Part shown: positions 23,296 through 62,890 of the stretch, piece by piece
Layout of the letters: each line of letters starts with the position of its first letter
Numbering within the stretch: the first letter of the stretch is position 1
NCBI GenBank assembly: GCA_963733095.1
Contig: CAVTBV010000006.1
Location: 32,001 to 96,000, forward strand
Source of the DNA: Candidatus Bathyarchaeota archaeon
GTDB lineage: Archaea > Thermoproteota > Bathyarchaeia > Bathyarchaeales > Bathycorpusculaceae
Direction: 5' to 3'
Length of the DNA stretch: 64,000 bases
Program-made: the position numbers and the translations under genes
The notes under the pieces: generated by a model
What the model was told of the DNA's origin: nothing
Databases searched by the model: none
The model's input: the letters and a program-made list of their open reading frames with translations, nothing else

Positions 23296-23370
23296 CGCAA
23301 GTCACCAAGGTAAGCTCTTATTTTACAAACGTTGGAAGTATTAAAATTTCCCTAAAATCGAAGTGAGCAT

Positions 23371-28339: not shown

Positions 28340-28553
28340 TTCGGAAAATGTTTCTAGACGCTTAGAATTGTTAAAGCTCGAAGGATTGGGCTTCTCGCAA
28401 GCAGAGATTGTGAAGGAATTGAGCCAAAAAGTGTCATGTACTGAGCGCACAATTTACTATGATTGTGCCTTAGCCCTTTATTCCGTCAACATATTTTCTT
28501 CTTATCTTCAAAAAACTAAAGGAATCTGCATACTAACTGGACTAAAAACATAA
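28340..28553 (+). pseudogene. HTH protein remnant inside the island
   Basis: RRLELLKLEGLGFSQAEIVKELS..CTERTIYYD helix-turn-helix pattern, then low-quality sequence. Confidence 0.5.
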
Positions 28554-28653
28554 ATTGAACTATAGTATAATACGGACCCATAGTTTTCTGGAGACATATC
28601 CCGCAAACCCCTTTTTTTAATGATATAAAACAATGCACGCTGGACTAATGCGC

Positions 28654-29463: not shown

Positions 29464-29714
29464 GAAATCTCCAAGACTCTTATCGTTAATTTCGGTATAT
29501 TAAATTAACTAATGATAGCTCGCTATGAGATCCTAAACTAGGCAAGTGTAGAAACCTAACATCCGTGTCTTTAAGCAAAATGTCACCTCTCAGTATAACT
29601 ATCAAGTTTACAGTTTTCTGTATTATTAAAGTGTTAAGACAAAATTATATTAGCCTATCTTGGGAAATAGAAAATCGTCTATATTCTTATAGACCTAAAA
29701 AGAAGGAGAAAAAA

Positions 29715-33474: not shown

Positions 33475-34383
33475 ATGCAAACCCACCACAAGGTAATCCT
33501 TGGAAATAGCCAACAAATGACTGAAATCTCCAGCGGTAGCGTCGAGTTGATGGTGACTTCGCCACCATACCCCATGATTGCGATGTGGGATGAGCTTTTC
33601 TTTAAGGCTGACCCAAATATTGCAAGTTTGTTTCAAAAACTTGATGCAGATAGTGGCGACGGAATTGCGAGACAAATCTACACTGCAATGCATAACTATT
33701 TAGCTAAAGTTTGGGCTGAAACCTACCGTGTCCTCCTCGACGGCGGTATAGCATGCATAAACATCGGTGACGCAACCCGAACAGTAAACGGCAGATTCCA
33801 ACTCTTCCCAAACCACAGCCGAATCATCGAAGTCTGCGAAAAAATTGGCTTCACAACGCTACCCTATGTTCTATGGAAGAAACCCACCAACAAACCTTCT
33901 TACAAGGGCAAGGGTGCTTTTTTGGGTTCAGGTTTCCTTCCCCCGAACGCTTATGTTACGCTGGATTGTGAGTTTATTCTGGTTTTTAGAAAAGGGAAGC
34001 TGCGAAAATTTGAACCCAAAGATGTGTTGAGGTATGAGAGTGCTTTCACTAAGGAGCAAAGGGATGAATGGTTTAGCCAAATCTGGTCAGTAAAAGGAAC
34101 GCGGCAAACTGCCAGCGAACTGGAACGCAGAACCGCCGCTTACCCTCAAGAAATCGCTGAGCGCCTAATCCGAATGTTCAGTGTCAAAGGCGAAACCGTA
34201 CTCGACCCGTTTTTGGGCTCAGGAACAACCACAAAAATCGCCATGCAAAATGAACGCAACAGCATCGGATACGAAACAGACCCAAATTTGTTACCTTTAA
34301 TAAACAAAAAAACAGACAACAGTACGGTACAAGGGGCATGGCTAGAAATAATCAAACGCCTAGAAAACTTTGAAAAATTTTAA
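33475..34383 (+). CDS. beta-class N4-C/N6-A DNA methyltransferase
   Basis: VTSPPY motif IV precedes VLDPFLGSGTT motif I; SPPY suggests m4C. Confidence 0.9.
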   Translation: MQTHHKVILGNSQQMTEISSGSVELMVTSPPYPMIAMWDELFFKADPNIASLFQKLDADSGDGIARQIYTAMHNYLAKVWAETYRVLLDGGIACINIGDATRTVNGRFQLFPNHSRIIEVCEKIGFTTLPYVLWKKPTNKPSYKGKGAFLGSGFLPPNAYVTLDCEFILVFRKGKLRKFEPKDVLRYESAFTKEQRDEWFSQIWSVKGTRQTASELERRTAAYPQEIAERLIRMFSVKGETVLDPFLGSGTTTKIAMQNERNSIGYETDPNLLPLINKKTDNSTVQGAWLEIIKRLENFEKF

Positions 34384-35247: not shown

Positions 35248-38200
35248 TTGACTAATGTACAAAAAGAAGATATCCATTATCTTTTGAAAACTTTCTTCAA
35301 CGAGAAAGGATTAGTTCGCCAGCACCTTGACAGCTACAACGAATTTATCGACCATGGACTCCAAGAAGTCGTAGATGAAGTAGCTGAAATTCCCATTGAA
35401 GTTCCCGAAAGCCCCTACAAGGTGAAACTTGGTCAAATCTGGGTAATTGACCCGCAATCACGCATTACAGGTCCATACGCAACTGAGGTGGATGGAACAA
35501 AACATGAAATTTACCCCATGGAAGCAAGACTACGCAACTTGGCGTATTCTGCTCCAATTGCTTTAGAAATGACTCCCGTCGTAGATGGAAGAGAACAGGA
35601 CACTGAACTTGTTTATATAGGAAATATCCCGGTTATGCTGAAAAGCAAACTTTGCTTCCTCAGCCAACTCAGCAAAGAAGAACTCATCGCGGCAGGAGAA
35701 GATCCTGATGATGCAGGCGGATACTTTGTTGTTAACGGCAGTGAACGCGTCATCGTAGCCATGGAAGACTTGGCTCCAAACCGCGTAATAGTCGACATAG
35801 ATGAAAAAGGCACCTCACCGGTTTATCAAGCAAAAATTTTCTCAACAACCGTCGGCTTCAGAGCTAGAATCGAACTTAAACTCAAATCAGACGACGCAAT
35901 CTACGTCACCATGCCGGGAGTTCCCACAGAAATCCCCTTCGTCGTCATCATGCGCGCTTTAACCATGGAAAAAGACAAAGATATCGCCGAAGCGGTTTCA
36001 CTGGACCCGGACACCCAAACTCAACTATCCGCATCATTCGAAAAAGCCATCGGCGTAGACACACCATCTGACGCCATCCTCTTTATCGGCAACCGCGTTG
36101 CCCATGGACAAGTCGAAGAATACAGGCTTCAAAAAGCAGAAACCGCCCTAGACAAAAACTTCCTCCCACACCTTGGCAGAAGCGACAAAAACCGCAAGGA
36201 AAAAGCCATATTCCTAGGTGAAATGGCATACCGCGTTATCCAACTAAAAACAGGAAGACGCCAACCAGACGATAAAGACCACTTCAAGAACAAACGACTA
36301 AGACTTGGTGGTCCATTGCTAGCTGATTTATTCCGCGTTTCATTCCGCAACTTAACACGGGACATTAAATACCAGCTTGAACGCATCGGCGTTAAAGGCC
36401 CAATCATAACCGTCTCCGCAGCTGTGCGACCGGGAATTATCACTGAACGTTTCCAGCATGCACTGGCCACAGGTAACTGGGGAAGAGGCCGAGTCGGTAT
36501 CACACAACTTTTGGACCGAACAAACTATATATCAACTTTAAGCCACCTGCGCAGGCTCCAATCACCCCTCAGTAGAAGCCAACCAAACTTCGAAGCCAGA
36601 GACTTACACCCAACCCACTGGGGACGCTTATGCCCCAACGAAACTCCTGAAGGCTCAAACTGTGGTCTTGTCAAAAACCTCGCACTATCAGCCTCAATCG
36701 CTGTAGGAGTAAACCCGGACAAAATTAAGCAGCTTCTCTTTGAAATGGGCACGGTGCCAGCATACGAATCCTCCACCGACTTGCGCATTTCAGGCGCCAA
36801 AGTCTTCGTTGACGGCAACATAATAGGCTACTGCAACAACCCGCAAGAGATGGTGCAGTCTTTCCGCCAGAAACGCAGATCAGGAGAAATATCAACCGAA
36901 GTTAACGTAACTTACTTCTCTAAAGCCCAAACTGAGACCGAAGAAGTCCACGCAAACTGCGACGAAGGCAGAGTCAGACGCCCACTCATCATAGTTGAAA
37001 ACGGGGTTGCAAAACTCGGCTCCAAACATTTTGAGAAAATCGGACTTGGCGAATGGACTTGGGAAGACCTTGTTAAGAACGGTTTAGTTGAGTATTTGGA
37101 TGCTGAAGAAGAAGAAAACGCTTACATCGCACTCTGCTACGACGCCATTGAACCTAAATCTACACATGTAGAGATTGCAACATTCACAATTCTTGGAATT
37201 TGCGCCTCAACCATTCCCTATCCAGAACACAACCAGTCACCACGCAACTCATACCAAGCCGCAATGGCTAAACAGGCACTGGGAGTCTACGGAACAAACT
37301 TCCACCACCGTGTCGACTCACGCTCACACATCCTACACTACCCACAAGTCCCAATGGTTCAAACCGAAAACATGGATGTCATGGGTTACAAACAACGTCC
37401 CACAGGACAAAACTGTGTCGTTGCCGTGCTCAGCTTCGAAGGCTACAACATGGAAGACGCCATCATCTTCAACAAAGCATCCATCGAACGAGGCTTAGCC
37501 AGATCAACTTTCTACCGAATCTACGAAGCAGAATGCCGCCAGTACCTCGGAGGCTTAAAAGACAAATTCACTGTTCCAGAACCAGGTACAAGAGGCTACC
37601 GTGGTGAACAATACTATCGTTTACTTGAACCCGACGGCATAATCGGCTTAGAATCCCAAGTTGTCGGTGGCGACGTCTTAATCGGCAGAATCAGCCCTCC
37701 AAGATTCCTTGAAGAATACAAAGAATTCGAAGTTAAAGGCCCCTCAATGCGTGACACATCAGTAGACATGCGCCCCTCCGAAACAGGCATCGTTGACGGA
37801 ATATTCGTAACGATGTCGGGCGAAGGAAGCCAACTTGTCAAAGTCCGCGTCAGAGACCAAAGAGTCCCAGAACTCGGCGACAAATTCGCTTCACGCCACG
37901 GACAGAAAGGAGTCATCGGATTAATCGTTCCCCAAGAAGACCTACCCTTTACAGAAGACGGCATAGTCCCAGACCTAATAATCAACCCACACGCAATCCC
38001 CTCAAGAATGACCATCGGACAATTCATCGAATCACTCTCAGGGAAAGCCGCATGCGCAAGAGGCAAACCAGGCGATGGCACACCGTTCTCAAACGAAGGC
38101 CCCGACGAAGTACGCAAAAACCTAGTCAAACTCGGTTTCAGCCAAACCGGCAGCGAAGTCTTCTACAACGGCGCAACAGGCGAAAAATTCGTTGCAGACG

Positions 38201-38613
38201 TATTCGTTGGAATCGTCTACTACCAAAAACTCCACCACATGGTTGCTGATAAAATCCATGCCAGAGCCCGCGGTCAAGTACAAATGCTCACACGCCAGCC
38301 AACTGAAGGACGCGCTCGGGGTGGAGGTCTACGTTTCGGAGAAATGGAACGCGACTGCCTCATCGGACACGGAGCCGCCATGCTATTACGAGACAGACTA
38401 CTGGAAGAATCTGACAAATACACTCTCTATATCTGCGAAAACTGCGGACAAATCGCTTACTTCGACATGAAGCAAAGGCGTTATGTCTGCAAGATATGCG
38501 ACGAGAAAGCAAAGATTGCACCAGTCATCGTATCTTACGCTTTCAAGCTTCTGCTGCAAGAACTGCAGAGCTTATGCATCACACCAAAATTAAGGCTAAA
38601 GGAGAAGGCATAA
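35248..38613 (+). CDS. rpoB: DNA-directed RNA polymerase subunit B (undivided Rpo2)
   Basis: GYFVVNGSERV, CPNETPEG, GYNMEDA, GDKFASRHGQKG and GLRFGEMERD motifs; C-terminal zinc ribbon. Confidence 0.98.
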   Translation: MTNVQKEDIHYLLKTFFNEKGLVRQHLDSYNEFIDHGLQEVVDEVAEIPIEVPESPYKVKLGQIWVIDPQSRITGPYATEVDGTKHEIYPMEARLRNLAYSAPIALEMTPVVDGREQDTELVYIGNIPVMLKSKLCFLSQLSKEELIAAGEDPDDAGGYFVVNGSERVIVAMEDLAPNRVIVDIDEKGTSPVYQAKIFSTTVGFRARIELKLKSDDAIYVTMPGVPTEIPFVVIMRALTMEKDKDIAEAVSLDPDTQTQLSASFEKAIGVDTPSDAILFIGNRVAHGQVEEYRLQKAETALDKNFLPHLGRSDKNRKEKAIFLGEMAYRVIQLKTGRRQPDDKDHFKNKRLRLGGPLLADLFRVSFRNLTRDIKYQLERIGVKGPIITVSAAVRPGIITERFQHALATGNWGRGRVGITQLLDRTNYISTLSHLRRLQSPLSRSQPNFEARDLHPTHWGRLCPNETPEGSNCGLVKNLALSASIAVGVNPDKIKQLLFEMGTVPAYESSTDLRISGAKVFVDGNIIGYCNNPQEMVQSFRQKRRSGEISTEVNVTYFSKAQTETEEVHANCDEGRVRRPLIIVENGVAKLGSKHFEKIGLGEWTWEDLVKNGLVEYLDAEEEENAYIALCYDAIEPKSTHVEIATFTILGICASTIPYPEHNQSPRNSYQAAMAKQALGVYGTNFHHRVDSRSHILHYPQVPMVQTENMDVMGYKQRPTGQNCVVAVLSFEGYNMEDAIIFNKASIERGLARSTFYRIYEAECRQYLGGLKDKFTVPEPGTRGYRGEQYYRLLEPDGIIGLESQVVGGDVLIGRISPPRFLEEYKEFEVKGPSMRDTSVDMRPSETGIVDGIFVTMSGEGSQLVKVRVRDQRVPELGDKFASRHGQKGVIGLIVPQEDLPFTEDGIVPDLIINPHAIPSRMTIGQFIESLSGKAACARGKPGDGTPFSNEGPDEVRKNLVKLGFSQTGSEVFYNGATGEKFVADVFVGIVYYQKLHHMVADKIHARARGQVQMLTRQPTEGRARGGGLRFGEMERDCLIGHGAAMLLRDRLLEESDKYTLYICENCGQIAYFDMKQRRYVCKICDEKAKIAPVIVSYAFKLLLQELQSLCITPKLRLKEKA

Positions 38614-38614
38614 C

Positions 38615-41600
38615 ATGTCACAGGAAGAATTAATACATAAAATAGTAGACGAAATCTCATTCGGTTTAATCTCACCTAAAGACCTCCGTAAACAATCAGT
38701 CGTAGAAATCCAAACACCAGACACCTATGACGAAGACGGTGCACCAATCACAGCAGGGTTAATGGATGGCAGACTAGGCACTCTTGAACCAAGGCAAAGA
38801 TGCAAAACTTGCGGCAACACAGCAATCCGCTGCCCAGGACACTTCGGACACATCGAACTTGCGGTACCAATCGTACACATAGAATTTACAAAGATTATTT
38901 TTGACCTCTTAAAAGCAACATGCCGCACATGCGGTCGCATTCTCCTCTCAGAAGACGCATCCAAAAAGGCACGCCAAAGACTCGAACGCTTCAACGACCT
39001 TTTGGGAACAATCCCCGATGAAATCTACAAAGAAGTCCTAACTGAGATCAAAGCAAAACAATGCCCCTACTGTGCAGCAGCCCAATTCAAAATTACCTTT
39101 GAAAAACCAACAAAGTTTATTGAGCAAACTGAAGCAGGCTCAGAACCTCTAACTCCCAGCATGATACGGGAAAGGCTGGAACGCATCTCAGATGAAGACC
39201 TTGAAATTTTAGGTTTTAACCCCAAAGTTGCACGTCCAGAATGGATGGTTCTTCAGGTTCTCCCGGTTCCACCAGTCTATGTGCGTCCATCAATCACTCT
39301 TGAATCAGGTATCCGCTCAGAAGACGACTTAACCCATAAACTCGTCGACATCATACGTATCAACCAGCGTTTGAAAGAAAACATGGAAGCAGGTGCACCA
39401 ACCCTAATTATCCAGGACCTATCCGAACTTCTACAATACCACGTTACCACGTACTTCAACAACGAGGCATCAGGTATTCCTCCAGCACGTCACCGTAGTG
39501 GTAGAGCCCTAAAGACCCTCTCTCAACGCTTGAAAGGTAAAGAAGGACGTTTCAGAAGCAACCTCTCAGGAAAACGTGTCGACTTCTCAGCTCGTACCGT
39601 CATATCGCCCGATCCTAACCTTGACATAAACGAAGTCGGTGTTCCACAAGATGTAGCCATGCGACTTTCAGTTCCAGAGAAGGTTACCGCTTGGAACATC
39701 GAAGAAATGAAGAAATTCGTAGTTAATGGTCCAGAAAACTATCCAGGTGCACTCTACATAATCCGCCCAGACGGCAAACGTATCCGGCTTGAATTCGTTG
39801 TTGACCGCACAAAAATCGCAGAAGCAGTAGAATTAGGCTTCATAGTCGAACGTCACCTCAAGAACGGTGACATAGCCATCTTTAATCGACAGCCTTCACT
39901 TCACCGCATGTCCATCATGGCCCACTACGTTCGTGTTTTACCCTACAAGACTTTCCGTATGCATTTATGTGTCTGTCCACCTTACAACGCAGACTTTGAC
40001 GGCGACGAAATGAACCTCCACGTTCCACAAAGTGAAGAAGCCCGAACTGAAAGCTTGCTGCTCATGCAGGTTCAAGACCAAATTCTCTCGCCAAGGTTCG
40101 GCGGACCAATCATCGGTGCCATCAGAGATTTTATCACAAGCGCCTACTACTTCACCAGAAAAGGAAACTACCTGACTCGAAGTCAAGTAAACAGACTACT
40201 AACTTCCACCGGCTATGTAGGCGAAGTACCCACACCCGAAATCAAGGACCCTCAACCCATGTGGTCAGGAAAACAAATCTTCAGCCTATACCTGCCAAAA
40301 ACACTAAACTACGTCTTGAAAGCCAACATTTGCCAAGGCTGCACGAAATGTGAAGAAGAGGCATGCAAACATGATGCATATGTAGTTGTCCGAAACGGCC
40401 AACTCGTCTCCGGCATTATTGATAGACGTTCAATCGGTTCTGAACAATCCGAAAGTCTGCTTCACAGAATCATCAAAGACTACGGTACACAAGCAGGAAG
40501 AGAATTCCTAAACAAAGTAACACATTTACTCAAACAATTCATCTCTATGCGTGGCTTCAGCTACACCTATGACCAACTGGTCCTCTCACCAAAAGCCCGC
40601 AACCGAATGACAAAGACCATGGACCGTATCCAAAAGAAAATCGACGAACACATCGAAAACTTCCGAAACGGAACCCTCCCACGCTTGCCAGGACAAACCC
40701 TTGAAGAATCCTTCGAAATCTACGTCATGCACGAATTAGCCGTAGCCCGAGATGAATCAGGCAAAATAGCAGACGACGACTTCACATTGGAAAACGCAGG
40801 CATCGTCATGACAAGAGCAGGAGCAAGAGGCTCAAGCTTAAACATCGGTCAAATGGCCGCTTGCGTTGGGCAACAATCAGTTCGAGGCAAACGTATCTTA
40901 AGAGGTTACGCAGGTCGAGCATTGCCACACTTCGTCGACGGTGACCCAAGCCCAAGAGCCAGAGGCTTCGTATACAACTCCTATCAGACTGGACTCGATG
41001 CGATTGAGTTCTTCTTCCACGCTATGGGTGGCAGAGAAGGTCTAGTTGACACAGCCGTTCGCACACAACAAAGCGGTTACATGCAGAGACGATTAATCAA
41101 CGCACTTGAGCACATTCGTTTAGAGTACGACAGCACTGTCCGTGACTCAGCAGGCGATATTATCCAATTCCGCTATGGAGAAGACGGCGTTGACCCAGCA
41201 AAAAGTGATCATGGTAAAGCAGTCAACGTTAACCGACTGATCGAACAGATAAAGCTTGGTGAAGAAAAAGGCGAAGTAGCATCCACGGAACACATTAAAA
41301 AACAACTAAAGAACGTAGAAAACCAGTTAACCCCCATCTTGCTAAACCAGCTTAAGCAAAACTTTGCAAAGAACAAGCTTACAGCAAAAGCAGTAACGAA
41401 AGCTGCAACTCAGACAGCTGAACAGTACAAACGAGCCTTGATGGAGCCGGGCGAAGCAGTCGGTATTGTTGCAGCCCAATCAATCGGTGAACCAGGCACT
41501 CAGATGACCCTTAGAACCTTCCACTACGCTGGTGTCAAAGAACAAAACGTCACCTTAGGCTTACCACGTCTAATCGAAATCGTAGACGCACGCAGAATCC

Positions 41601-42448
41601 CTTCAACCCCAATCATGACCATCTACCTGCAAGGCGACCACGCAAAGAGCAAAGAAGGCGCCGTTGAAGTTGCACGAAACATCATCTACACTTCAGTTGA
41701 AAACTTGGCTTCAGCAATCTACGAAGACCCCGTTCGCGAAGCAATAATCATTGAATTAAACAAGCAGATGATGGATGACCGAGCTATAACGATGGATGAG
41801 CTAAAAGAACGCATGGAACTGCAAAATGCAACCGTGACAGTCACAGACACAACCGTCGAGATTAAACCAAAGAAAGCTGAACAACTCAAACGCATGTTGG
41901 CTAAGGTTCCAGGATACCAGGTTAAAGGTGTTCCAGACATAAAACGTGTCCTAGTTACCGAAGAGAACGGTGAATGGGTAATACGCACTGACGGCTCAAA
42001 CCTGTCCAAAGTCCTCGAAGTCATAGGCGTAGATACATCACGAACAACCACCAACAACATCCACGAAATCGCTAAAACCCTCGGAGTAGAAGCTTCAAGA
42101 AACGCATTAGTCAACGAAGCCAAAGGTGTCTTAGAAGACCAAGGCTTAGACGTAGACGTACGCCACGTAATGCTCGTAGCAGACATGATGACTACCACAG
42201 GCGATGTACAGCAAATCGGCAGACACGGAATCAGCGGCAAAAAAGCCAGTGTCCTCGCGCGCGCCGCATTCGAAATCACGGTCCCCAACATTGTTGAGGC
42301 AGCCGTGAAGGGTGAAAGTGATCCTTTGGCTGGCGTAACAGAAAACGTTATAGTTGGGCAATCAATACCAATCGGCACAGGCTTAGTTGAACTGTACATG
42401 TCAACATTTGAAACGCAAGAAAAAGATGGAGGAAAAACAGAAGCATGA
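38615..42448 (+). CDS. rpoA1: DNA-directed RNA polymerase subunit A, fused A'+A'' (Rpo1)
   Basis: CPGHFGHIEL and YNADFDGDEMN, continuing in frame into the A'' motifs AAQSIGEPGTQMT and GVTENVIVGQ. Confidence 0.98.
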   Translation: MSQEELIHKIVDEISFGLISPKDLRKQSVVEIQTPDTYDEDGAPITAGLMDGRLGTLEPRQRCKTCGNTAIRCPGHFGHIELAVPIVHIEFTKIIFDLLKATCRTCGRILLSEDASKKARQRLERFNDLLGTIPDEIYKEVLTEIKAKQCPYCAAAQFKITFEKPTKFIEQTEAGSEPLTPSMIRERLERISDEDLEILGFNPKVARPEWMVLQVLPVPPVYVRPSITLESGIRSEDDLTHKLVDIIRINQRLKENMEAGAPTLIIQDLSELLQYHVTTYFNNEASGIPPARHRSGRALKTLSQRLKGKEGRFRSNLSGKRVDFSARTVISPDPNLDINEVGVPQDVAMRLSVPEKVTAWNIEEMKKFVVNGPENYPGALYIIRPDGKRIRLEFVVDRTKIAEAVELGFIVERHLKNGDIAIFNRQPSLHRMSIMAHYVRVLPYKTFRMHLCVCPPYNADFDGDEMNLHVPQSEEARTESLLLMQVQDQILSPRFGGPIIGAIRDFITSAYYFTRKGNYLTRSQVNRLLTSTGYVGEVPTPEIKDPQPMWSGKQIFSLYLPKTLNYVLKANICQGCTKCEEEACKHDAYVVVRNGQLVSGIIDRRSIGSEQSESLLHRIIKDYGTQAGREFLNKVTHLLKQFISMRGFSYTYDQLVLSPKARNRMTKTMDRIQKKIDEHIENFRNGTLPRLPGQTLEESFEIYVMHELAVARDESGKIADDDFTLENAGIVMTRAGARGSSLNIGQMAACVGQQSVRGKRILRGYAGRALPHFVDGDPSPRARGFVYNSYQTGLDAIEFFFHAMGGREGLVDTAVRTQQSGYMQRRLINALEHIRLEYDSTVRDSAGDIIQFRYGEDGVDPAKSDHGKAVNVNRLIEQIKLGEEKGEVASTEHIKKQLKNVENQLTPILLNQLKQNFAKNKLTAKAVTKAATQTAEQYKRALMEPGEAVGIVAAQSIGEPGTQMTLRTFHYAGVKEQNVTLGLPRLIEIVDARRIPSTPIMTIYLQGDHAKSKEGAVEVARNIIYTSVENLASAIYEDPVREAIIIELNKQMMDDRAITMDELKERMELQNATVTVTDTTVEIKPKKAEQLKRMLAKVPGYQVKGVPDIKRVLVTEENGEWVIRTDGSNLSKVLEVIGVDTSRTTTNNIHEIAKTLGVEASRNALVNEAKGVLEDQGLDVDVRHVMLVADMMTTTGDVQQIGRHGISGKKASVLARAAFEITVPNIVEAAVKGESDPLAGVTENVIVGQSIPIGTGLVELYMSTFETQEKDGGKTEA

Positions 42449-48161: not shown

Positions 48162-48556
48162 GTTAATGAGCTATCAATCAGGTTATTGAAAATAAAATCT
48201 GAAATTTCGTATTAATGTTAACAACTATGGGCGCAGTCGGCTTCTCTCTCGCTTTCAGGTATCTGGCGGTTTTCACGTTTTCTTTGTTATATCAGCCAGT
48301 GTATCTTTGTCGACACCATGCAACTTGACCGAGTAATAAATTTTGTCATTTTCATTAGCGTTCTAACCGACATTCAATACGCTTGTTTATCGGCTTAGAT
48401 TAATTGAAGTCTCATCAGAGAAAGGCGTAAAGAGCCCTAAATTGCCATATTAAGAAAAAGGGGAACATTTGCGGGAGATATCGGCATTTTAGTCAAAATT
48501 GTTTTAATAAGACGCCTTTCAATAGTGTGAACGCTTCAAAATAGAGGCAAACAATC

Positions 48557-50473
48557 TTGTTAATCAAAGAAGTCATCCTTGAAAATTTCATGAGTTACGA
48601 ATACGCCAGAGTCCCCTTTAAACAAGGCGTAAATATAATTGGAGGGCCAAACGGCGCAGGGAAATCCTCCCTTCTGCTGGCTATCTCAGTTGGTTTGGGG
48701 CAAACCTACACTGAACGCTCCCGAAAACTAAGCGATTTAATCCGTTGGGGACAAGACCAAGCCCGAGTCACACTCATCCTCGACAACAGCAAACAAGGCA
48801 ACAAACGTCCAGTCTCAAAATATAGCAAAGACCAACTCTTCCTAACCCGCGTACTGCGACGAGATGGAAAATACTTTTTTGAACTCGAAAACCGAGTTGC
48901 CAGCAAACAAGACATTGAACGGTTGCTCGGCAAATTCGGAGTTGACCCCGACAACATGCTAATCATCATGCATCAGAACATGGTGGAGCAATTCAGCGTT
49001 TTAAGTAATGTAGAAAAACTGTATATGGTTGAAGCAGCCGTGGGTTTGGAACCTTTCAGAGAAAATGTCGTGCAAGCCAAAACCAAACTGATGCGTATAC
49101 TGAGCCAAGAAGAATCAGTCAGCAAACTCCTTGAGCAAGCCCAACAAACCTTGGCTTACTGGCATGAACAATACGAGAAGTACCAAGAGAAAAAGCAGTT
49201 ACAGCTAAAACGCCGGTTTTTGGACCGTGAACTAATCTGGGCCGAAGTTGAAAAACGCGAAGCCGCAATCAAGGATTTACAGACCAAGTTTAACAAGAAC
49301 CAACAGTTTTTGGGCAAGATTGAAGATGACCGACAAGCAATAATCGGCGAACTCGATGGCTTACAGACAAAGCAGCAAACCTTGAAGGACAAAGCCAGTA
49401 CTGTTTTTGAACAGCGAGTAAGCTTAGAACGTGAGGTTGCACAAAACGAATCGACCTTATCGTTTATTGAACAGTTGCTCACCGAAGCCCAAGCTATAGA
49501 AGCCCTTGCCAATAAGAGCCAGTTTAAGCTTCTTCGAAGCAAGAACCTTGAAAAAATGCTGGAAACCTCCAGACAAAAAATCGAAAAAGCAAACGAGGAA
49601 ATTAAAGAAACCAAACAAATGAATCTTAAACTCGATGACTCTTCTGAGAAAATTTCCTCCGAGACTCTGGAAAAACGTGTAACTCTTGGTTTGCTGGAGT
49701 TTAAGCGGGCAAATGCAATCGCTGACATGAAAAACATCGAGAAATCGATTAAGGAAGCCGAAGAAAACCTCAGTGTTGCAATCCAAAAAGCTCAACCTTC
49801 TGGCGAGCGCATAGCAGTCCTTAAAAGTAACGCAGAAATCCAAGACGAAATCGCCTTAACCAATGGGCACTTAGCTGCGTTGGCTGACGTTTCAGAGGAC
49901 ATTGAACGTCAGTATGAATCGTACTCAAAGCTTTATTTAGAACTAAAAGAGAAGGCGCAGTTGGTTGCCGAGAACCGCGAGAAAACTCTTGAAGAAGTCA
50001 AAACCCGCATGCAATCTTGGCGGACCGTTATGGAGAATCTGATTGAACGGGTAAATGTTGAATACCAGAAAATTATGAGTCAAACCCGTGCAACTGGAGA
50101 AGTGAAGCTTTCAAGCGTTCAGGATGTTGAGACTGCTGGGCTTGAGATTTATGTTGGGTTTAAAGGAAGCAAACCCGTAGCGTTGGACGCTTACACGCAA
50201 AGCGGTGGCGAACGAACCACAGCGACTATGGGTTTTCTTTTGGCTTTGCAGCAGCATGTGCGCTCCCCCTTCCGTGCAGTCGACGAATACGACATTCACA
50301 TGGACCCCAAAAACCGAGAAATGATAGCTAAAGTCCTTGTTGCAATGATTAAAGATGCCAGCGCACAATACGTTGTGATTACTCCCAGCCAAATTACTTT
50401 TGCACAACAGGACGCTAACGTCATCACTGTGCAGAACCTTGAAGGAAAATCAATCGTGCGTGAGGTTGCCTAA
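48557..50473 (+). CDS. short SMC-family ATPase with SMC5/6-like head (ClsN/ASRP/arcadin-4-related)
   Basis: LENFMSY, GPNGAGKSS Walker A, IIMHQN Q-loop, coiled coil, QSGGER signature, PFRAVDEYDIHMD Walker B/D-loop, VITP; 638 aa with no hinge or zinc hook visible. Confidence 0.9.
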   Translation: MLIKEVILENFMSYEYARVPFKQGVNIIGGPNGAGKSSLLLAISVGLGQTYTERSRKLSDLIRWGQDQARVTLILDNSKQGNKRPVSKYSKDQLFLTRVLRRDGKYFFELENRVASKQDIERLLGKFGVDPDNMLIIMHQNMVEQFSVLSNVEKLYMVEAAVGLEPFRENVVQAKTKLMRILSQEESVSKLLEQAQQTLAYWHEQYEKYQEKKQLQLKRRFLDRELIWAEVEKREAAIKDLQTKFNKNQQFLGKIEDDRQAIIGELDGLQTKQQTLKDKASTVFEQRVSLEREVAQNESTLSFIEQLLTEAQAIEALANKSQFKLLRSKNLEKMLETSRQKIEKANEEIKETKQMNLKLDDSSEKISSETLEKRVTLGLLEFKRANAIADMKNIEKSIKEAEENLSVAIQKAQPSGERIAVLKSNAEIQDEIALTNGHLAALADVSEDIERQYESYSKLYLELKEKAQLVAENREKTLEEVKTRMQSWRTVMENLIERVNVEYQKIMSQTRATGEVKLSSVQDVETAGLEIYVGFKGSKPVALDAYTQSGGERTTATMGFLLALQQHVRSPFRAVDEYDIHMDPKNREMIAKVLVAMIKDASAQYVVITPSQITFAQQDANVITVQNLEGKSIVREVA

Positions 50474-51300
50474 TGCAGACCGTGAAACATAACAAGAAGC
50501 TGGGCAAAGAAAAACTGGAACGCATAATTGAAATGTGCCTTGCCATAGAAAACCACACTGTCGAACCCTTCACACTCAACATTGACGAAATAATCAAAGT
50601 CGTAAAGGAATATTTCCCCAATTGGGCAGACACCGAAGAACTAAAACTCGACGCCGAAACCCTTCACCACTTAGCCACCGTAATTAAAATTCAAAGCGAA
50701 TGGGTAAAACAGCGATCAAACTCGCTCTACGCGGACCCGTTCTTGTTGGAAGAAAAAATCCGCCAAACCAGCAAGCAGGGCATAGTTGATGTGTTTTTGG
50801 CGGCTTGGAGTCCGCTGGTTGAGTTTGAGCAGCTTAGTCTCCACCGTCTGGCACAGGGGTTGCTGTATTGGGGTGCGTTGGCTCCTATGGGTGATCGCTG
50901 GAAAGACATAGATGTTTCCCAAGTTGCCATGGGTTCAGTTAGCCGCGACGAGCTGGTTAAGCAGCGGGTTTTAAGTGACCGCGAATTTTCTGAGGAGCTG
51001 GAGTGTTACTGGCATGAACTCAAAGTTAAAGTCCAAGAAAAAGGGGCAGCTGGTAAGGTTGCCTACTGGGATTTCATCGGTGCCGACACGTACGAGGAAA
51101 CGGTGCAGCGGGCTTTCTTGACGAGTTTTCTGGTAACTTATGGTTATGCCACATTAGAGATTGATAGGTTAGAAGAGTCAGTCTTCATTTTGCCCTTCGA
51201 TAAGCCCCGCAAAGAAACACTTACGGAGCAGTCGACGTCGGTTCCAATCGCTGTGTCGTGTCAAGATTGGCAAAAATGGAAACGAGGCGAAAAAATTTGA
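50473..51300 (+). CDS. putative kleisin (ScpA-like N-terminus, Nse4-like C-terminal winged helix)
   Basis: VEPFTLNIDEII...LATVIKIQS and YWDFI..DTYEETVQRAFLTSFLVTYGYATLEID; TAATG coupling to the SMC gene. Confidence 0.68.
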   Translation: MQTVKHNKKLGKEKLERIIEMCLAIENHTVEPFTLNIDEIIKVVKEYFPNWADTEELKLDAETLHHLATVIKIQSEWVKQRSNSLYADPFLLEEKIRQTSKQGIVDVFLAAWSPLVEFEQLSLHRLAQGLLYWGALAPMGDRWKDIDVSQVAMGSVSRDELVKQRVLSDREFSEELECYWHELKVKVQEKGAAGKVAYWDFIGADTYEETVQRAFLTSFLVTYGYATLEIDRLEESVFILPFDKPRKETLTEQSTSVPIAVSCQDWQKWKRGEKI

Positions 51301-51941
51301 GCAGCAAGAAAAAAGGTGTCTACGCAGGCAAAGTCAAGAAAGCAACCCAGATGCTCTTCTACAAACGCCACCAGAAACCTGGCGTAAAAGGGTGGGAACT
51401 GCACAAAGCCTTGGGTTCCGATTATCCTAAAGTGCTGGATTTGTTGGAGGATTATCTAAAGCCGCTTGATTTGCAGGTTAAAGTGGTTTTTGAAGAGGAA
51501 AAAGCCCCTGAAAAACCAACCCTCGAGGAGCTGGATAAAGCCCGATTCTTCGTTGCGCTCGCAAACGGCTCAGTAATAAAAGATAAGCTCATGGGTTGGC
51601 GAGTCGACGATTTAGCAGGTCTAGCCATAACAATAAGCTACATAATCAGCAAAAAAGGACAAGCTGCACGAAAAGACATCGAAAAAATGTTAGCTGAAAA
51701 AATGCCAAACTGGAAAATCGGTTTAAACCTTGACAGATACATCCGCTACGGCTACCTTATGCAGGACGAGAAGGGGCAGCTTTTCTTGGATTGGCGTACA
51801 CGCGCGGAAGTTGACCAGAAAGCGCTCATCAACATGCTGCTTAACGCGGAGAAACAAGCTGAAGAAGCCGCCGAACCCGCATCCCAAGAGCAGGAAACCG
51901 GAGACTCAGAAGAAGCTAACACAGAAGAAGAAACCAAGTAA
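51297..51941 (+). CDS. putative KITE subunit (tandem winged helix, Nse1/Nse3-MAGE/ScpB-like)
   Basis: LDRYIRYGYL..DEKGQLFLDWRTRAEV WH2 ending; acidic tail; TTGA overlap with the preceding stop. Confidence 0.62.
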   Translation: MSSKKKGVYAGKVKKATQMLFYKRHQKPGVKGWELHKALGSDYPKVLDLLEDYLKPLDLQVKVVFEEEKAPEKPTLEELDKARFFVALANGSVIKDKLMGWRVDDLAGLAITISYIISKKGQAARKDIEKMLAEKMPNWKIGLNLDRYIRYGYLMQDEKGQLFLDWRTRAEVDQKALINMLLNAEKQAEEAAEPASQEQETGDSEEANTEEETK

Positions 51942-51942
51942 G

Positions 51943-52509
51943 CTAAACCGCTAAAACAGCAATATAACAGTTCACGGCTTCTTCATCCACAAACGTATTA
52001 ACCTCCATCCCTGAACCGTCAAGGATATCCATGAATTTTTCTAGCGGAAATGCCTTCTTGAGCCCCGTAACAATAATCCTGCCACCGGTCCCAGCAACGC
52101 GCTTTAGCTCTTGCAGGGTTTCGGAGGGTTTGGGCATGTTCTGCAATATGGTAAAGGCGAATATGGCGCCAAAATAGCCGTCTTTGAAGGGCAGGTGGTC
52201 GGCGTCAGCTTGAAGGATATGGGTGTTTTGGAAGGGGTAAACGTGGGATTTGGCTTTTTGAAGGAGTATGCGCGAGAAGTCAACGCCTATGGCTATTTCA
52301 ACTTTATCGGCAACTTCACGGAAAAATAGTCCCGAGCCGCATCCAACATCCAAAACCTTTTTTCCCTCTAAATGAACGTTTTCCAGCGCCTTATCGTATT
52401 TCCTCTGCTGCTCCTCGCCGTACTGCTCATCGTAACTCGCCGCTGTCACATCATACCGCCCCATCACCTTGCGCTTCTCTTTCCAAGCCTTCAACGCGTA
52501 ATCCTTCAA
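51943..52509 (-). CDS. class I SAM-dependent methyltransferase
   Basis: VLDVGCGSG, GVDFS, ADADHLPFKDG and ELKRV motifs. Confidence 0.9.
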   Translation of the reverse strand: MKDYALKAWKEKRKVMGRYDVTAASYDEQYGEEQQRKYDKALENVHLEGKKVLDVGCGSGLFFREVADKVEIAIGVDFSRILLQKAKSHVYPFQNTHILQADADHLPFKDGYFGAIFAFTILQNMPKPSETLQELKRVAGTGGRIIVTGLKKAFPLEKFMDILDGSGMEVNTFVDEEAVNCYIAVLAV

Positions 52510-52555
52510 GAAATCTTATGTACCCAAACCCACCCTAAATAGTTGGCTGAAACCT

Positions 52556-53350
52556 ATGCTGCAAAACAACAAACTCACAGTCCTAAAAGAGCCCTCTATC
52601 GCGGAAGCCGCTGTTCTCATCGAAAAAGCCTTCGCCCAACGAAGAACTCTTGTCGTCGCAGGTACCTGCCATGTCCACTACGTCGGCAGAGCACGCAGCA
52701 CCCTCGAAGAGGGCGAACGCCTCCTCATAATCAAATCCGACGGCAGCCTCCTCGTTCACCGCCCAGTCGGTTACGAACCCGTCAACTGGCAACCCGCAGG
52801 CAGCATCTTCCACGTCGAAATCAAGCAGGAAGGACTCGAAATCCACGGCGTGCGCCAAAAACCCCGCGAAAGCGTCCGCGTAACCTTCAAAAACATCTAC
52901 ATGCTCAGCGCCCTCCAACTTACCGATGCAGGAGATTTCCTTTTGCATGCCAGCGAAGACGACATGCACCGCGCCATTCTCCTCAAACCCGAACTCCTCG
53001 AAGAAGGGTTTAAGCCGATTAGCTGGGAGAAAAAAGTGGAACCCGGCTTCGTAGATATCTACGGGGAAGACAAAGATGGCAAACTCGTCATCGTGGAAGT
53101 GAAACGCAAAATAGCGTCCAAAGAAGCTGCGCTCCAGTTGGCTAAGTACATTGAACCCATAAAAGCCAAGGTGAACCGTGAAGTCCGCGCGGTTTTGGCT
53201 GCTCCGAGTTTGGGGAAGGATGTGCAGAGGTTGATGGTTACGCTTGGATTAGAATACAAAGCTCTGGATCCGAAGGTCTGTGCTGAAGTGCTCAAGAAGA
53301 CGGAGAACTCTAAACTCGAGAGTTTCTTTAACCAAAAAGAGGTTGTCTAA
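52556..53350 (+). CDS. nucS: mismatch-specific endonuclease NucS/EndoMS
   Basis: C.VHYVGRARSTL..GER, KSDGSLLVH..PVNWQP, VDIYGED...VEVKR and QLAKY motifs. Confidence 0.95.
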   Translation: MLQNNKLTVLKEPSIAEAAVLIEKAFAQRRTLVVAGTCHVHYVGRARSTLEEGERLLIIKSDGSLLVHRPVGYEPVNWQPAGSIFHVEIKQEGLEIHGVRQKPRESVRVTFKNIYMLSALQLTDAGDFLLHASEDDMHRAILLKPELLEEGFKPISWEKKVEPGFVDIYGEDKDGKLVIVEVKRKIASKEAALQLAKYIEPIKAKVNREVRAVLAAPSLGKDVQRLMVTLGLEYKALDPKVCAEVLKKTENSKLESFFNQKEVV

Positions 53351-61020: not shown

Positions 61021-61117
61021 AGTTCAAATTAGATTGACTTCAGACAAAAAATCCTATTCTATTACAGGTAGTAAGTTTAAAAGTTCAACCAAATAGTATT
61101 TGTGTGAGCGAAAAACC

Positions 61118-62890
61118 ATGGATTACGCCATAATCGCCGATGCCTACGAAAAAATCGAAGCAACCCCCAAACGCCTAGAAATGACTGATTTGCTTGTTGA
61201 ATTGCTTAAAAAAACCCCAAAAGGAATCATTTCCAGAGTCGTTTATTTAACGCAGGGAAAACTGTACCCCGACTTCATGGGAGTTGAGATGGGTGTTGCT
61301 GAAAAGCTCGCCATAAAAGCCTTGACTCGTGCTTCTGGGCATAGAGAAAGTGAAATTCAATCTGAACTGCAAAAAAGTGGCGACATAGGCGAAACCTCGG
61401 AAAAACTACTCGCTAAACGCAAACAATCCACATTCTTTACAAGAAAGCTTACAGCTGAGCGGGTTTACGAGACTCTTGATAAATTGGCGAAAACTTCAGG
61501 TAGCGGCGCGGTAGATACAAAGATGACGCTTCTCTCGGGACTGCTTACTGACTCGTCATCTAAAGAGGCAAAATGGATAATTCGAACCGTGACGGGTAAC
61601 TTGCGGTTGGGCATTGCAGATATGACGGTGCTTGACGCCTTAGCGATAGCTTACGGCGGCGGAAAAGAATCTCGTGAACTCATCGAACGCGCCTACAACA
61701 TCTCGTCCGACTTGGGCAGGGTCGCAAACGTCGTTGCCGAAAAAGGCATGGAAGGAATCAGGCAGTTTCAAGTTATGGTTTTTGAACCAATAAGGCCAAT
61801 GCTTGCTGAGCGACTGGGTGCTCCAGAAGAAATTTTGGAAAAGTTCAGCGGCAAATGCGTAGCCGAATACAAGTACGACGGCGAAAGAATCCAGGCACAC
61901 AAAAAAGACGATAAAGTCATCCTGTATTCTAGGCGCCTCGAGAACATCTCTAACCAATATCCCGACGCGGTCGAATTAATAAAGGAAAAAATCGCGGCTA
62001 AAGAAGCCATATTAGAAGCTGAATGTGTTGCGATGGATTTAGAAACAGGAGATATGCTTCCCTTTCAGGAATTGATGCATCGTCGCCGCAAATACGGGAT
62101 AGAAACCGCCATACAAGACTACCCAATCTCGCTTTTCGCCTTCGACGCCCTCTACGTCGACGGCAAAGACCTAACCCTCGACCCCTTCCTACAAAGACGC
62201 AAAGCCCTCGAAAAAATCATCAAACAAAGCGACAGAATAAAACCAGCCACACAAAAACCTGTCAGTAGCCCCAAGGAACTCGAAGACTTCTTTGAGGAAG
62301 CCATATCGGAAGGCTGCGAAGGTTTAATGTGCAAATCAGTTGCCAAAGACTCGGTCTATCAAGCGGGTAGTCGCGGTTGGCTTTGGATAAAACTGAAGCG
62401 TGACTACCGCAGCGAAATGACCGATACCGTGGATTTAGTTGTGGTAGGCGCCTTTCACGGCAGAGGCAAACGTGTGGGTGCTTATGGCGCTTTGCTCTTA
62501 GCCACCTACAACGATGAAACAGACACGTTTGAAACCGTAACTAAATGCGGCACAGGTTTTACAGATAAAGACTTGGCGCAACTTCATCAGATGTTACAGA
62601 AACATGTAATTCCACGCAAAAACACCCGTGTCCAATCTACTATGGAGGCAGATGTTTGGTTTGAGCCCGCGTTGGTCTTGGAGATTTTAGGTGCCGAAGT
62701 TACCTTGAGCCCGATTCACATGACTGCAATGCACTCCATACGCAAAGGTGCAGGCTTTGCCATTCGGTTTCCACGCTTTACAGGCAAATACCGCACCGAC
62801 AAAGCCCCTGAAGACGCAACAACCTCCAAGGAAATTGAGGAGATGTACCGTGGGCAACTAAAGAAAATCGGTGAAGCCCCAAAAAGCTAA
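61118..62890 (+). CDS. lig: ATP-dependent DNA ligase
   Basis: EYKYDGER adenylation motif, EGLMCK, WIKLKRDY, DLVVVGA and IRFPRF. Confidence 0.97.
   Translation: MDYAIIADAYEKIEATPKRLEMTDLLVELLKKTPKGIISRVVYLTQGKLYPDFMGVEMGVAEKLAIKALTRASGHRESEIQSELQKSGDIGETSEKLLAKRKQSTFFTRKLTAERVYETLDKLAKTSGSGAVDTKMTLLSGLLTDSSSKEAKWIIRTVTGNLRLGIADMTVLDALAIAYGGGKESRELIERAYNISSDLGRVANVVAEKGMEGIRQFQVMVFEPIRPMLAERLGAPEEILEKFSGKCVAEYKYDGERIQAHKKDDKVILYSRRLENISNQYPDAVELIKEKIAAKEAILEAECVAMDLETGDMLPFQELMHRRRKYGIETAIQDYPISLFAFDALYVDGKDLTLDPFLQRRKALEKIIKQSDRIKPATQKPVSSPKELEDFFEEAISEGCEGLMCKSVAKDSVYQAGSRGWLWIKLKRDYRSEMTDTVDLVVVGAFHGRGKRVGAYGALLLATYNDETDTFETVTKCGTGFTDKDLAQLHQMLQKHVIPRKNTRVQSTMEADVWFEPALVLEILGAEVTLSPIHMTAMHSIRKGAGFAIRFPRFTGKYRTDKAPEDATTSKEIEEMYRGQLKKIGEAPKS

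Follow-up and report, generated by a model that had tools for sequence, protein, structure and literature searches.

Three overlapping genes of a Bathyarchaeia genome very probably encode the local copy of a published archaeal SMC5/6-related SMC-kleisin-kite complex, carried on the core chromosome as one operon with translational coupling. An SMC5/6-related aSMC of archaea was described by Yoshinaga & Inagaki 2021 (PMC8665677), with Bathyarchaeota sequences in its SMC5/6-related clade, and the preprint of van Hooff, Raas, Tromer & Eme (bioRxiv 10.1101/2024.01.07.573240) describes operons of Nse4-like kleisins and Nse1/3-like kites in TACK and Asgard archaea. Like the present one, the published complexes unite these three components in a single operon, occur in TACK archaea beside a canonical SMC-ScpAB operon and are presumed homodimeric. 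The locus is a member of this class, with SMC5/6-nearest heads, an Nse4-related kleisin, an Nse1/3-like kite and co-location of the three beside a separate canonical SMC operon, and nothing in it differs in kind. The interpretation as an SMC5/6-like operon, first made in a sequence-only reading, was therefore right, but the operon type is already published and adds little by itself. That reading knew of no characterised kleisin-KITE partners for short archaeal SMC-like proteins and so overrated the novelty, since van Hooff et al. had already predicted such partners; the idea that eukaryotic SMC5/6 derives from an archaeal SMC-kleisin-kite operon is likewise in print. The under-described point is the architecture, an SMC with kleisin and kite partners but without a hinge. 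Word searches of the main texts of both studies returned no mention of a half-length, hinge-less build; according to the text of the 2021 study, the coiled coil was removed before tree building and lengths of 500-1500 aa were accepted.

Operon structure and distribution

Within the window (the whole 64,000-nucleotide stretch analysed), the trio occupies positions 48557-51941 of the forward strand. ORF1 (48557..50473, +; TTG start, 638 aa) is an SMC5/6-related SMC ATPase, ORF2 (50473..51300, +; ATG start, 275 aa) a kleisin whose C-terminal winged-helix domain is of the Nse4 type, and ORF3 (51297..51941, +; TTG start, 214 aa, or 227 aa from an upstream GTG at 51258) a predicted Nse1/Nse3(MAGE)-type tandem winged-helix kite. 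The TAATG and TTGA couplings proposed for the genes were both found in the letters: one base is common to the ORF1 stop and the ORF2 start (...gccTAATGcag...), and the TGA of ORF2 is overlapped by the TTG of ORF3 (...aatTTGAgc...). All motifs previously quoted for the three proteins are likewise present in their translations. Upstream, TTTAATAA lies ~47 nt and GAGG 9 nt 5' of the ORF1 TTG start, and together they may form the promoter and ribosome-binding region of the operon (48503..48556, +). The nucS gene (52556..53350; Pfam NucS_N 9e-28, NucS_C 1.3e-26) begins 615 bp after ORF3, in agreement with the 0.6 kb noted before; it lies outside the operon because a methyltransferase gene on the opposite strand (51943..52509) intervenes, and its adjacency did not recur among 20 distant loci.

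Of 401 Thermoproteota genomes sampled, 198 (about half) contain the kleisin, among them nearly every member of many families, mostly with one match per genome; several of the genomes bearing it are assembled as a single contig. At 25 of 30 distant loci (19/20 and 6/10) the order SMC-kleisin-kite was retained, so that the trio is syntenic elsewhere. At the five non-syntenic loci (four unlinked, one at a contig end), a short SMC was located elsewhere in the genome in frames of 567-607 aa. Given the kleisin's presence in these genomes and the gene order at these loci, the operon reflects more than chance. A further recurrent feature was an Lhr helicase gene, the convergent neighbour of the kite at 12 of 20 distant loci; it is absent from the window, the Lhr genes of this genome being on other contigs.

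The same genome carries a canonical smc-scpA-scpB operon on contig C12 (SMC of 1183 aa, ScpB at 6e-35 and a weak ScpA at E 0.005) and a separate Rad50-like gene. As a side observation, one Bathyarchaeia family has a paralogue of ~1020-1070 aa with a central CxxCGS hook-like motif.

SMC5/6-type heads, kleisin and kite

Judged by its sequence, ORF1 is an SMC-type ABC ATPase in which the catalytic motifs are all conserved and whose heads are closest to those of eukaryotic SMC5 and SMC6. It comprises an N-terminal head (residues ~1-164), a helical hairpin arm and a C-terminal head (~510-638), with ENFMSY at residue 9, GPNGAGKS at 30, QSGGER at 548, PFRAVDEYDIHMDP at 571 and ITP at 608, and it matched Pfam SMC_N at 2.9e-29. 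Among 37 family sequences, no variation occurs in Walker A, the Q-loop, the signature SGGER, the Walker B DE or ITP. Against the PDB, the best single-sequence phmmer matches were Smc5 (4.1e-32) and Smc6 (2.5e-27), and the first 10 sequences retrieved with the family profile were all SMC5/SMC6 (1.3e-79 to 8.2e-67), with Pyrococcus Smc next (2.3e-62). In a 1.84-billion-protein representative library, the next-best proteins after the archaeal family itself were ~1020-1130 aa long (one was 1328 aa) with 23-28% identity, and both of the two representatives tested against human SMC5 were SMC5 orthologues (9e-176, 3e-139). A quick head tree separated canonical SMCs from all others (SH-aLRT 100) and nested the eukaryotic rows in the archaeal-relative clade (support 97). 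The PDB ranking, the library orthologues and the head tree thus agree with the SMC5/SMC6-type head that had been proposed. On segment ORFs, the family profile scored the canonical SMC at 229 bits and six adjacent short SMCs at 630-732.

The length of ORF1 raises another reading, that it is a Rad50/ASRP (ClsN/Sph)-type protein or a truncated SMC remnant lying beside ORF2 and ORF3 by coincidence, to which we give next to no credence. Its 638 aa do resemble ASRP (model length 593), and the NCBIfam models ASRP (1.2e-16, nearly end to end) and Rad50 (2.7e-17) both matched. These matches, however, reached 60.4 bits against a cut-off of 300 and 62.1 against 700, respectively, with SMC_prok_A higher at 158 bits, and the family profile scored Rad50 at 1.9e-16 as against 1e-79 for SMC5/6, so that the ATPase does not group firmly with Rad50/SbcC. 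Rad50 and ASRP (ClsN, Sph) share with ORF1 a short coiled coil and the lack of a globular hinge; they differ, as described in the cited articles, in dimerising through a CxxC zinc hook and in having no kleisin or kite partner (PMC10586767, PMC9389158), whereas ORF1 contains no cysteine. Throughout the phylum the protein keeps its length and catalytic motifs, the gene order is maintained at distant loci, and the Rad50-like gene of the genome is another one; all three argue against this reading.

By its sequence, ORF2 bears an Nse4-type C-terminal winged-helix domain (residues ~195-270), including the motif YWDFI...YGYATLEID from residue 198. Pfam Nse4_C matched at 3.5e-5, with 24.4 bits against a cut-off of 26, and rose above the cut-off in a six-frame search (26.7 bits); 15 of 27 relatives matched it at E<=0.01 (best 3.5e-7). 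The family profile against the PDB favoured EID3 (1e-4) and yeast Nse4 (1.2e-4) over ScpA (0.77-1.1), and the Atlas gave a eukaryotic Nse4_C cluster for ORF2 (0.92). The Nse4-like C-terminus recognised earlier is therefore well founded, while the ScpA-like N-terminal motif claimed alongside it was confirmed by no tool: nothing matched the N-terminal part, and both the PDB profile and an hhalign comparison of the kleisin family with the ScpA of this genome (E 7.5e-4, probability 25%) aligned the C-terminal domain only. This conserved N-terminal helical part presumably binds the SMC neck.

ORF3, with LFLDWRTRAEV from residue 162, is predicted to fold as an Nse1/Nse3-type tandem winged-helix kite. 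Its AlphaFold2 model (pLDDT 84.7, pTM 0.67) comprises a tandem winged helix, a C-terminal helix and an acidic tail. The four best Foldseek matches in the PDB were NSE1, MAGE-G1 and Nse1-Nse3-Nse4 chains (5hvq_D 3.7e-5, 7dg2_A 7.2e-5, 5hvq_C 7.6e-5, 7dg2_C 1.4e-4), in line with the suggested KITE identity, and weaker matches followed in the order MAGE-A4, JetB, ScpB and MukE. A sequence search of the kite against the PDB returned nothing significant (best E 0.073), and the Pfam matches of its relatives were weak (SMC_Nse1 in 6/27, MAGE in 3/27).

The comparison with eukaryotic Smc5/6 extends to all three proteins. In alignments the eukaryotic SMCs share with ORF1 the head motifs SGGER (QSGGER in yeast Smc5, LSGGER in human SMC6) and PFR..DE (yeast Smc5, human SMC6), with (I/L)TP replacing the H-loop; the kleisin belongs to the Nse4 family by its C-terminal domain, and the kite fold is nearest Nse1 and Nse3/MAGE. 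The eukaryotic holo-complex, to which Nse2 and Nse5/6 also belong, nevertheless has an SMC5/SMC6 pair where the operon has one SMC gene, Nse1 plus Nse3 where it has a single kite gene that lacks a RING (ORF3 contains no cysteine), and arms of ~350 residues per strand with a hinge where ORF1 has ~150 and none. The Smc-ScpAB of the same genome shares the general SMC-kleisin-kite architecture and the operon layout, but its SMC is only distantly related to ORF1, and no similarity was detectable between its ScpB and the ORF3 kite family.

The short arm of ORF1

In the AlphaFold2 model of ORF1 (pLDDT 88.0), the arm is a ~153-residue antiparallel helical hairpin of ~23 nm: a helix at 165-317 and return helices at 326-415, 425-441 and 449-509, the two long helices being joined by an 8-residue loop (318-325) with pLDDT <50. 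Pfam SMC_hinge (PF06470) did not match ORF1, the protein's lack of cysteine leaves it without a hook, and none of 37 family members has a CxxC in the middle third. Model and sequence hence confirm the proposed absence of a hinge and hook, and the arm is predicted to be closed by a short, poorly conserved loop. Conservation is lowest at the apex (0.16-0.18), compared with 0.65-0.84 in the core head blocks (1-80, 521-580); the remaining head blocks have values of 0.49-0.67. The short form (567-657 aa) was present in 30 of 30 genomes checked across the phylum. An SMC is defined in one review (PMC10586767) by a head, a long coiled coil and a hinge; ORF1 has the heads and partners of an SMC but not this textbook hinge. 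Since a hinge is retained in eukaryotic SMC5/6 and in some near relatives among the archaea, the hinge-less form is probably derived and less likely to be the root of SMC5/6 that was suggested earlier; the head tree did not resolve the order of events.

Because ORF1 has no hinge, we propose a side-by-side contact between two arms. ESMFold2 runs of a homodimer of residues 165-509 gave 0.46, 0.45 and 0.43 (median 0.45), the best of three controls giving 0.00, and passed a mark reached by 20 of 30 proteins solved as homodimers and by 1 of 23 solved as single chains; the ORF1 run used a custom alignment, so this calibration is only rough, and the tool's own note allows for up to 19 in 100 single chains passing. 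The runs agreed in >=86% of contacts with partner pLDDT >=78, and the contacts were symmetric, i with i; in the model the arms therefore run parallel. In post hoc analyses, family-wide hydrophobicity was 0.52 at interface positions and 0.37 at other arm positions, and the conserved hydrophobic doublets 283/284, 287/288, 370/371 and 379/380 were more than a two-helix coil would require. Conservation along the interface stretch is only moderate (0.30-0.32). These results support side-by-side pairing rather than show it, as the score is the model's own confidence and may partly be a memory of juxtaposed SMC arms in solved structures.

The same complex might instead have unpaired arms, the SMCs being joined solely by ATP-engaged heads and a bridging kleisin, with the kleisin compartment as the only one and the short hairpins as free levers or docking sites. 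We regard this as less likely than pairing. Conservation is poorest at the apex and in the distal arm, ORF1 has no hinge, hook or cysteine, and the pairing is a model score that a share of single chains may also pass. The blank controls, the reproducible symmetric contacts and, post hoc, the surplus of hydrophobic doublets speak for paired arms instead.

Proposed complex and its meaning

If the complex is built like Smc-ScpAB and Smc5/6-Nse1/3/4, the heads of two ORF1 molecules would enclose two ATP, one kleisin would link one SMC at its neck to the other at its cap, and two kites would sit on the kleisin middle, giving an expected stoichiometry of 2:1:2, with DNA clamped atop the engaged heads within the kleisin compartment. 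The distal thirds of the two arms (~284-303 and ~367-382) would hold them together side by side, so that the complex would be a short rod or clamp and not a large hinge-closed ring. It is likely to act in maintaining or repairing the genome and not in the bulk folding of the chromosome, a task open to the canonical SMC of the same genome; the recurrent Lhr gene beside the kite and, here, the nearby nucS provide the repair context.

An SMC-based defence against plasmids or viruses (Wadjet- or Lamassu-like), in place of chromosome maintenance, is in our view highly improbable. ORF1 gave generic PADLOC matches (mad3 3.4e-22, LmuB 5.3e-17, JetC 4.3e-8), and eukaryotic SMC5/6 also restricts episomal DNA according to the above review (PMC10586767). 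Yet neither ORF2 nor ORF3 had a PADLOC match, and the Pfam-scanned neighbours, namely RNA polymerase (B/A'), regulators, the methyltransferase, NucS, a CBS protein, Fe-S proteins and DNA ligase, included no JetD/MksG/LmuA-type effector, consistent with the absence of an adjacent JetD/MksG nuclease reported initially. RNA polymerase B/A', DNA ligase and NucS are core-gene neighbours, and the kleisin's distribution in the phylum fits a housekeeping gene, in contrast to the patchiness of a defence island. Wadjet JetABC(D) and MukBEF also combine SMC, kleisin and kite, and JetB and MukE are among the weaker fold matches of ORF3; they differ in their hinged SMCs, and Wadjet has the JetD nuclease, whereas no nuclease accompanies the present operon and its sequence affinity is to SMC5/6.

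In current definitions, as given in that review (PMC10586767), kleisin and kite partners are tied to a hinge-bearing SMC. The hinge also has a part in present-day models of how loops are extruded and DNA is entrapped. A widespread, conserved hinge-less complex is a natural 'mini-SMC' that could reveal which SMC activities require just heads, neck, kleisin and kite. It is experimentally convenient, being small (638 + 275 + 214 aa), and since ORF1 and ORF3 lack cysteine it is suited to site-specific cross-linking. More speculatively, this Thermoproteota branch may have a natural hinge-less SMC-kleisin-kite machine with paired short arms, acting as an ATP-gated DNA clamp and not as a hinge-dependent loop extruder, in which the apex is interchangeable in evolution, near relatives having either a bare hairpin, a hinge or, in one Bathyarchaeia family, arms that have lengthened again and end in a Rad50-like CxxC hook. 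The hook-bearing paralogue, if real, would independently link SMC-type heads to a Rad50-type apex. Should this tentative picture be true, the hinge would be dispensable for core SMC5/6-type activity, and the rule that the hinge goes with kleisin and kite and the hook with Mre11 would be broken twice in one clade.

Gene order and surroundings of the SMC operon

The sequence-only reading had proposed a translationally coupled trio on the forward strand (window 48557-51941), and we found all three ORFs where it had placed them, with every motif it had quoted present; the locus is real, was correctly interpreted, and belongs to a published family. ORF1, the SMC ATPase (48557..50473, +; TTG start, 638 aa), runs through a TAATG junction into ORF2, the kleisin (50473..51300, +; 275 aa), which meets ORF3, the kite (51297..51941, +; TTG start, 214 aa), at TTGA, both junctions being read directly from the sequence. 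A GTG at 51258 would extend ORF3 to 227 aa, and 214 aa is the database's own gene call for an identical protein (P0241). Upstream of the ORF1 start lie GAGG, 9 nt before it, and TTTAATAA, ~47 nt before it. Both ORF1 (638 aa) and ORF3 (214 aa) are cysteine-free.

The region around the operon is ordinary chromosome, with genes for RNA polymerase B and A' (window 35248-42448) and DNA ligase (window 61100-62890) and an unremarkable GC content (0.42-0.47 around the operon). The NucS gene (window 52556-53350) is a neighbour outside the operon, because an opposite-strand methyltransferase gene lies between ORF3 and nucS. A 156-aa Arg/Pro-rich ORF (window 52543-53013) overlaps nucS in a different frame and seems to be no real gene but a frame that is open by chance where the DNA is richer in GC. 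Elsewhere in the window we noted a stand-alone N6/N4 DNA methylase gene (33475-34383; Pfam N6_N4_Mtase, 8.9e-39) and a stretch at 22000-30000 where GC falls to 0.36-0.39 (vs 0.42-0.49 in the flanks), and which encodes a NosD-like protein, a PEMT/ICMT-like methyltransferase, a PRC-barrel protein and a TrmB regulator; a Pfam scan of this stretch revealed nothing mobile and nothing related to the operon.

SMC5/6-type heads and their kleisin and kite partners

ORF1 matched Pfam SMC_N (2.9e-29), and when it was searched as a single sequence against PDB, yeast Smc5 (4.1e-32) and Smc6 (2.5e-27) came out on top, followed at lower ranks by Pyrococcus Smc head constructs (1e-22) and Rad50 (~6e-9). We then used a family profile built from 37 members (alignment A3), for which the best ten distinct PDB sequences were all SMC5 or SMC6 (1.3e-79 to 8.2e-67), ahead of Pyrococcus Smc (2.3e-62), SMC2 (4.2e-58) and Rad50 (1.9e-16), a ranking that is not a phylogeny and in which coiled coil can raise the scores of full-length chains. 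The profile alignments revealed that ORF1 shares with SMC5/6 the SGGER signature (QSGGER in yeast Smc5, LSGGER in human SMC6) and PFR..DE, and that the H-loop is replaced by ITP in both the ORF1 family and SMC5/6 (LTP in human SMC6). Since Walker A, the Q-loop glutamine, SGGER, the Walker B residues D576/E577 and I608-T609-P610 are invariant in 37/37 sequences, the ORF1 ATPase looks functional. Among 1.84 billion representative proteins, the best matches to ORF1 formed a family of mostly 550-690 aa; from E ~1e-36 on, the hits in the same library were mostly of 1020-1130 aa, at 23-28% identity, and both of the two that were checked are SMC5 orthologues.

A quick head-domain tree (64 rows, 325 columns, LG+G4, SH-aLRT only) was built on an alignment fitted to the ORF1 family's own profile, with three canonical Thermoproteota SMCs to place the root; the tree lacks rows for SMC1-4, bacterial SMC and Rad50, a Rad50-like protein having been left out for want of a profile match in its C-head. 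Canonical SMCs were split from all other rows with support 100, and the 18 eukaryotic rows formed one clade (support 93) nested in a larger one of 58 rows (support 97), to which most of the short, half-length hinge-less forms belong as well. The short, hinge-bearing and eukaryotic groups form a polytomy. This tree agrees with published trees, but it is far less complete.

The assignment of ORF2 as an Nse4-like kleisin was borne out by its C-terminal part, where residues 204-270 matched Pfam Nse4_C (3.5e-5; score 24.4 bits where the cut-off is 26). A six-frame Nse4_C search of the genome gave the ORF2 locus as its sole match (26.7 bits), and 15/27 diverse ORF2 relatives matched this domain at E<=0.01. 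The kleisin family profile (A1) preferred Nse4-type proteins over ScpA in PDB, the E-values being 1e-4 for human EID3, an NSE4 paralogue, 1.2e-4 for yeast Nse4, and 0.77-1.1 for ScpA C-terminal domains. An ESM Atlas feature search with ORF2 likewise returned a eukaryotic Nse4_C cluster (0.92) after ORF2's own archaeal clusters. The N-terminal half is well conserved (e.g., P32, D60, Q74), and its domain found no match with any tool, including profile searches against PDB and hhalign against the genome's own ScpA; by analogy with kleisins in general, this half would bind the SMC neck.

Sequence searches alone did not settle the kite identity of ORF3. It had no sequence match in Pfam or PDB (best PDB E for the ORF3-family profile, 0.073), hhalign detected no similarity of the family to the genome's own ScpB, and among 27 relatives 6/27 touched SMC_Nse1 (best 0.0016) and 3/27 touched MAGE (best 2.8e-4). 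Its AlphaFold2 model (pLDDT 84.7, pTM 0.67) consists of a pair of winged-helix domains and, after them, a long helix, and Foldseek against PDB ranked MAGE-G1/NSE1 (5hvq chains D, C) and Nse1-Nse3-Nse4 (7dg2 chains A, C) first (3.7e-5 to 1.4e-4), then MAGE-A4, Wadjet JetB, ScpB and MukE. On the strength of this ranking, the predicted fold of ORF3 is that of a kite closest to the Nse1/Nse3 type, in keeping with the Nse1/3-like identity first proposed for it. Nse1 has a RING, whereas ORF3 has none (0 Cys).

The hinge-less arm of ORF1 and its longer relatives

ORF1 had been described as having no hinge or CxxC hook, and both points stand: a Pfam scan found no hinge domain in the protein, its model is a bare hairpin, and it contains 0 cysteines, with CxxC in the middle third of 0/37 family members. 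In the AlphaFold2 model (pLDDT 88.0), one helix (residues 165-317) leads to a loop (318-325, pLDDT <50), from which helices at 326-415, 425-441 and 449-509 run back to the head, giving a modelled helical hairpin of ~153 residues (~23 nm). The break near the conserved G416 may correspond to an SMC joint, which it resembles in the model. Conservation in ORF1 is lowest at the apex (mean column identity 0.16-0.18 at residues 301-340).

A truncation at this locus does not account for the short build, as judged from the lengths of close relatives and of kleisin-linked SMCs in distant loci. Close ORF1 relatives measured 627-662 aa among the 120 matches listed in a large protein collection, and the SMC adjoining the kleisin measured 573-657 aa in 19/20 distant loci and 572-619 aa in 6/10 further, more divergent loci. 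Frames of 567-607 aa were found elsewhere in the genome in five genomes where the SMC was unlinked or the contig ended. At four loci (L048, L089, L091, L092), kleisin and kite lie together and the short SMC lies 9-10 kb off or on another contig; at L048, two unrelated ORFs separate kleisin and kite.

Heads, kleisin and kite would form the usual core here, in a 2:1:2 SMC:kleisin:kite complex, and DNA would be clamped on the ATP-engaged heads. Asking what replaces the hinge, we submitted two copies of the ORF1 arms (residues 165-509) with alignment A3 to a complex predictor (ESMFold2 homodimer run), whose calibration mark was reached by 20/30 proteins solved as homo-pairs and 1/23 solved as single chains. 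Scores of the arm homodimer were 0.46, 0.45 and 0.43, against 0.00 for the highest of three controls; at least 86% of contacts agreed between runs, and partner pLDDT was at least 78. Predicted contacts were symmetric (288-288, 292-292, 295-295 and 374-374, within regions 284-303 and 367-382), and the modelled arms therefore run parallel, pairing ~20-35 residues below the loop. Post hoc, hydrophobicity over the whole family was higher at the interface positions (0.52) than in the rest of the arm (0.37), and the interface included conserved hydrophobic doublets. The homodimer model thus supports, but does not show, arm-arm binding by ORF1, and solved rod-shaped SMC dimers may feed the pairing prediction through predictor memory.

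Near ORF1 in sequence we also observed long forms (P0376, 1047 aa; P0377, 1028 aa; P0385, 1016 aa), whose heads are 41-45% identical to that of ORF1. These long paralogues of the short SMC range over ~1016-1076 aa (P0376, P0377, P0385, P0428 and P0429; loci L062-L064 and L071-L076, in other Bathyarchaeia genomes) and carry, relative to ORF1, ~425 extra coiled-coil residues located exactly at the apex. A CxxCGS motif is conserved in mid-protein (relative position 0.51-0.52), being present in 5/5 long representatives and in all 6 of the distinct genome loci whose sequence covers the centre; it resembles the Rad50/ASRP zinc hook, but sits on SMC5/6-type heads, which NCBIfam models identify as SMC-type and not as ASRP or Rad50. 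Across 301 sampled Bathyarchaeia genomes, long frames occurred only in one family (f73), where three genomes with the long form have kept a short 651-aa copy; the source genome has no long form. At the one locus checked (L063), neither kleisin nor kite lies beside the long gene. In the head tree, hook forms fall inside or beside the main short clade (support 99), and a tree separating the 28 main-clade short forms from the hook forms stays acceptable in the AU test (p-AU 0.219), so derivation of the hook form from the short form is not established.

Other relatives retain a hinge, such as P0452 (835 aa; Pfam SMC_hinge, 4.6e-11). P0419 (982 aa) has a G/P-rich globular middle at about residues 391-560 that was not matched by the Pfam hinge domain. 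These two proteins and P0443 (928 aa) share 27-34% identity with the short family and have a globular, hinge-like middle.

Distribution of the family and its published framework

In a phylum-wide sample of 401 genomes, we detected an ORF2-type kleisin in 198, with near-universal presence in many families and none found in others (e.g., 0/56 in f15). The source genome also carries a canonical operon (contig C12:183500-191000, L095) encoding an SMC of 1183 aa, a ScpA-like ORF (240 aa, with Pfam SMC_ScpA at E 0.005 only) and ScpB (6e-35), and judging by their sequences its two SMC sets are deeply diverged. A Rad50-like gene is present as well (C2:89166-91256, L096:2166-4256; 696 aa, NCBIfam Rad50, 2e-49); it lies ~9 kb from one Lhr gene (C2:79491-79955).

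Among 20 distant loci (L039-L058), the gene next to the kite, transcribed towards it, encodes an Lhr helicase in 12/20 (e.g., L039:2567-5467, with domains DEAD, Helicase_C, WH_Lhr and DEAD_assoc), and neither nucS nor the methyltransferase recurred as a neighbour. The source genome's two Lhr genes, on C2 and C14, are unlinked to the operon. A reading of the locus as a defence system was rejected, as no effector was found among the scanned neighbours and the distribution is housekeeping-like.

A set of 80 archaeal SMCs has previously been defined as 'SMC5/6-related' (Yoshinaga & Inagaki 2021, PMC8665677); most come from TACK, with Bathyarchaeota among the sources, and the paper's supplement gives accession numbers without protein lengths. 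The operons of such SMCs have further been shown to encode a kleisin related to Nse4 and a kite resembling Nse1/3, and to accompany a second, canonical operon; the same authors propose that the whole complex was duplicated in the TACK-Asgard ancestor (van Hooff et al., 10.1101/2024.01.07.573240, version 2025-05-28). The SMC5/6-origin hypothesis of the sequence-only reading is already in print. A word search of the main texts of both papers (PMC8665677 and 10.1101/2024.01.07.573240) found no mention of a short or hinge-less form, and no description of a hinge-less archaeal SMC5/6-like protein was found in the literature searched, which takes in few subscription journals. According to one review, what defines an SMC protein is a hinge together with kleisin and KITE/HAWK partners, and what defines Rad50 is a zinc hook and the lack of those partners (PMC10586767); a hook is likewise found in ASRP proteins, ClsN among them (PMC9389158). 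The remaining interest of this locus lies in its hinge-less build and variable apex.
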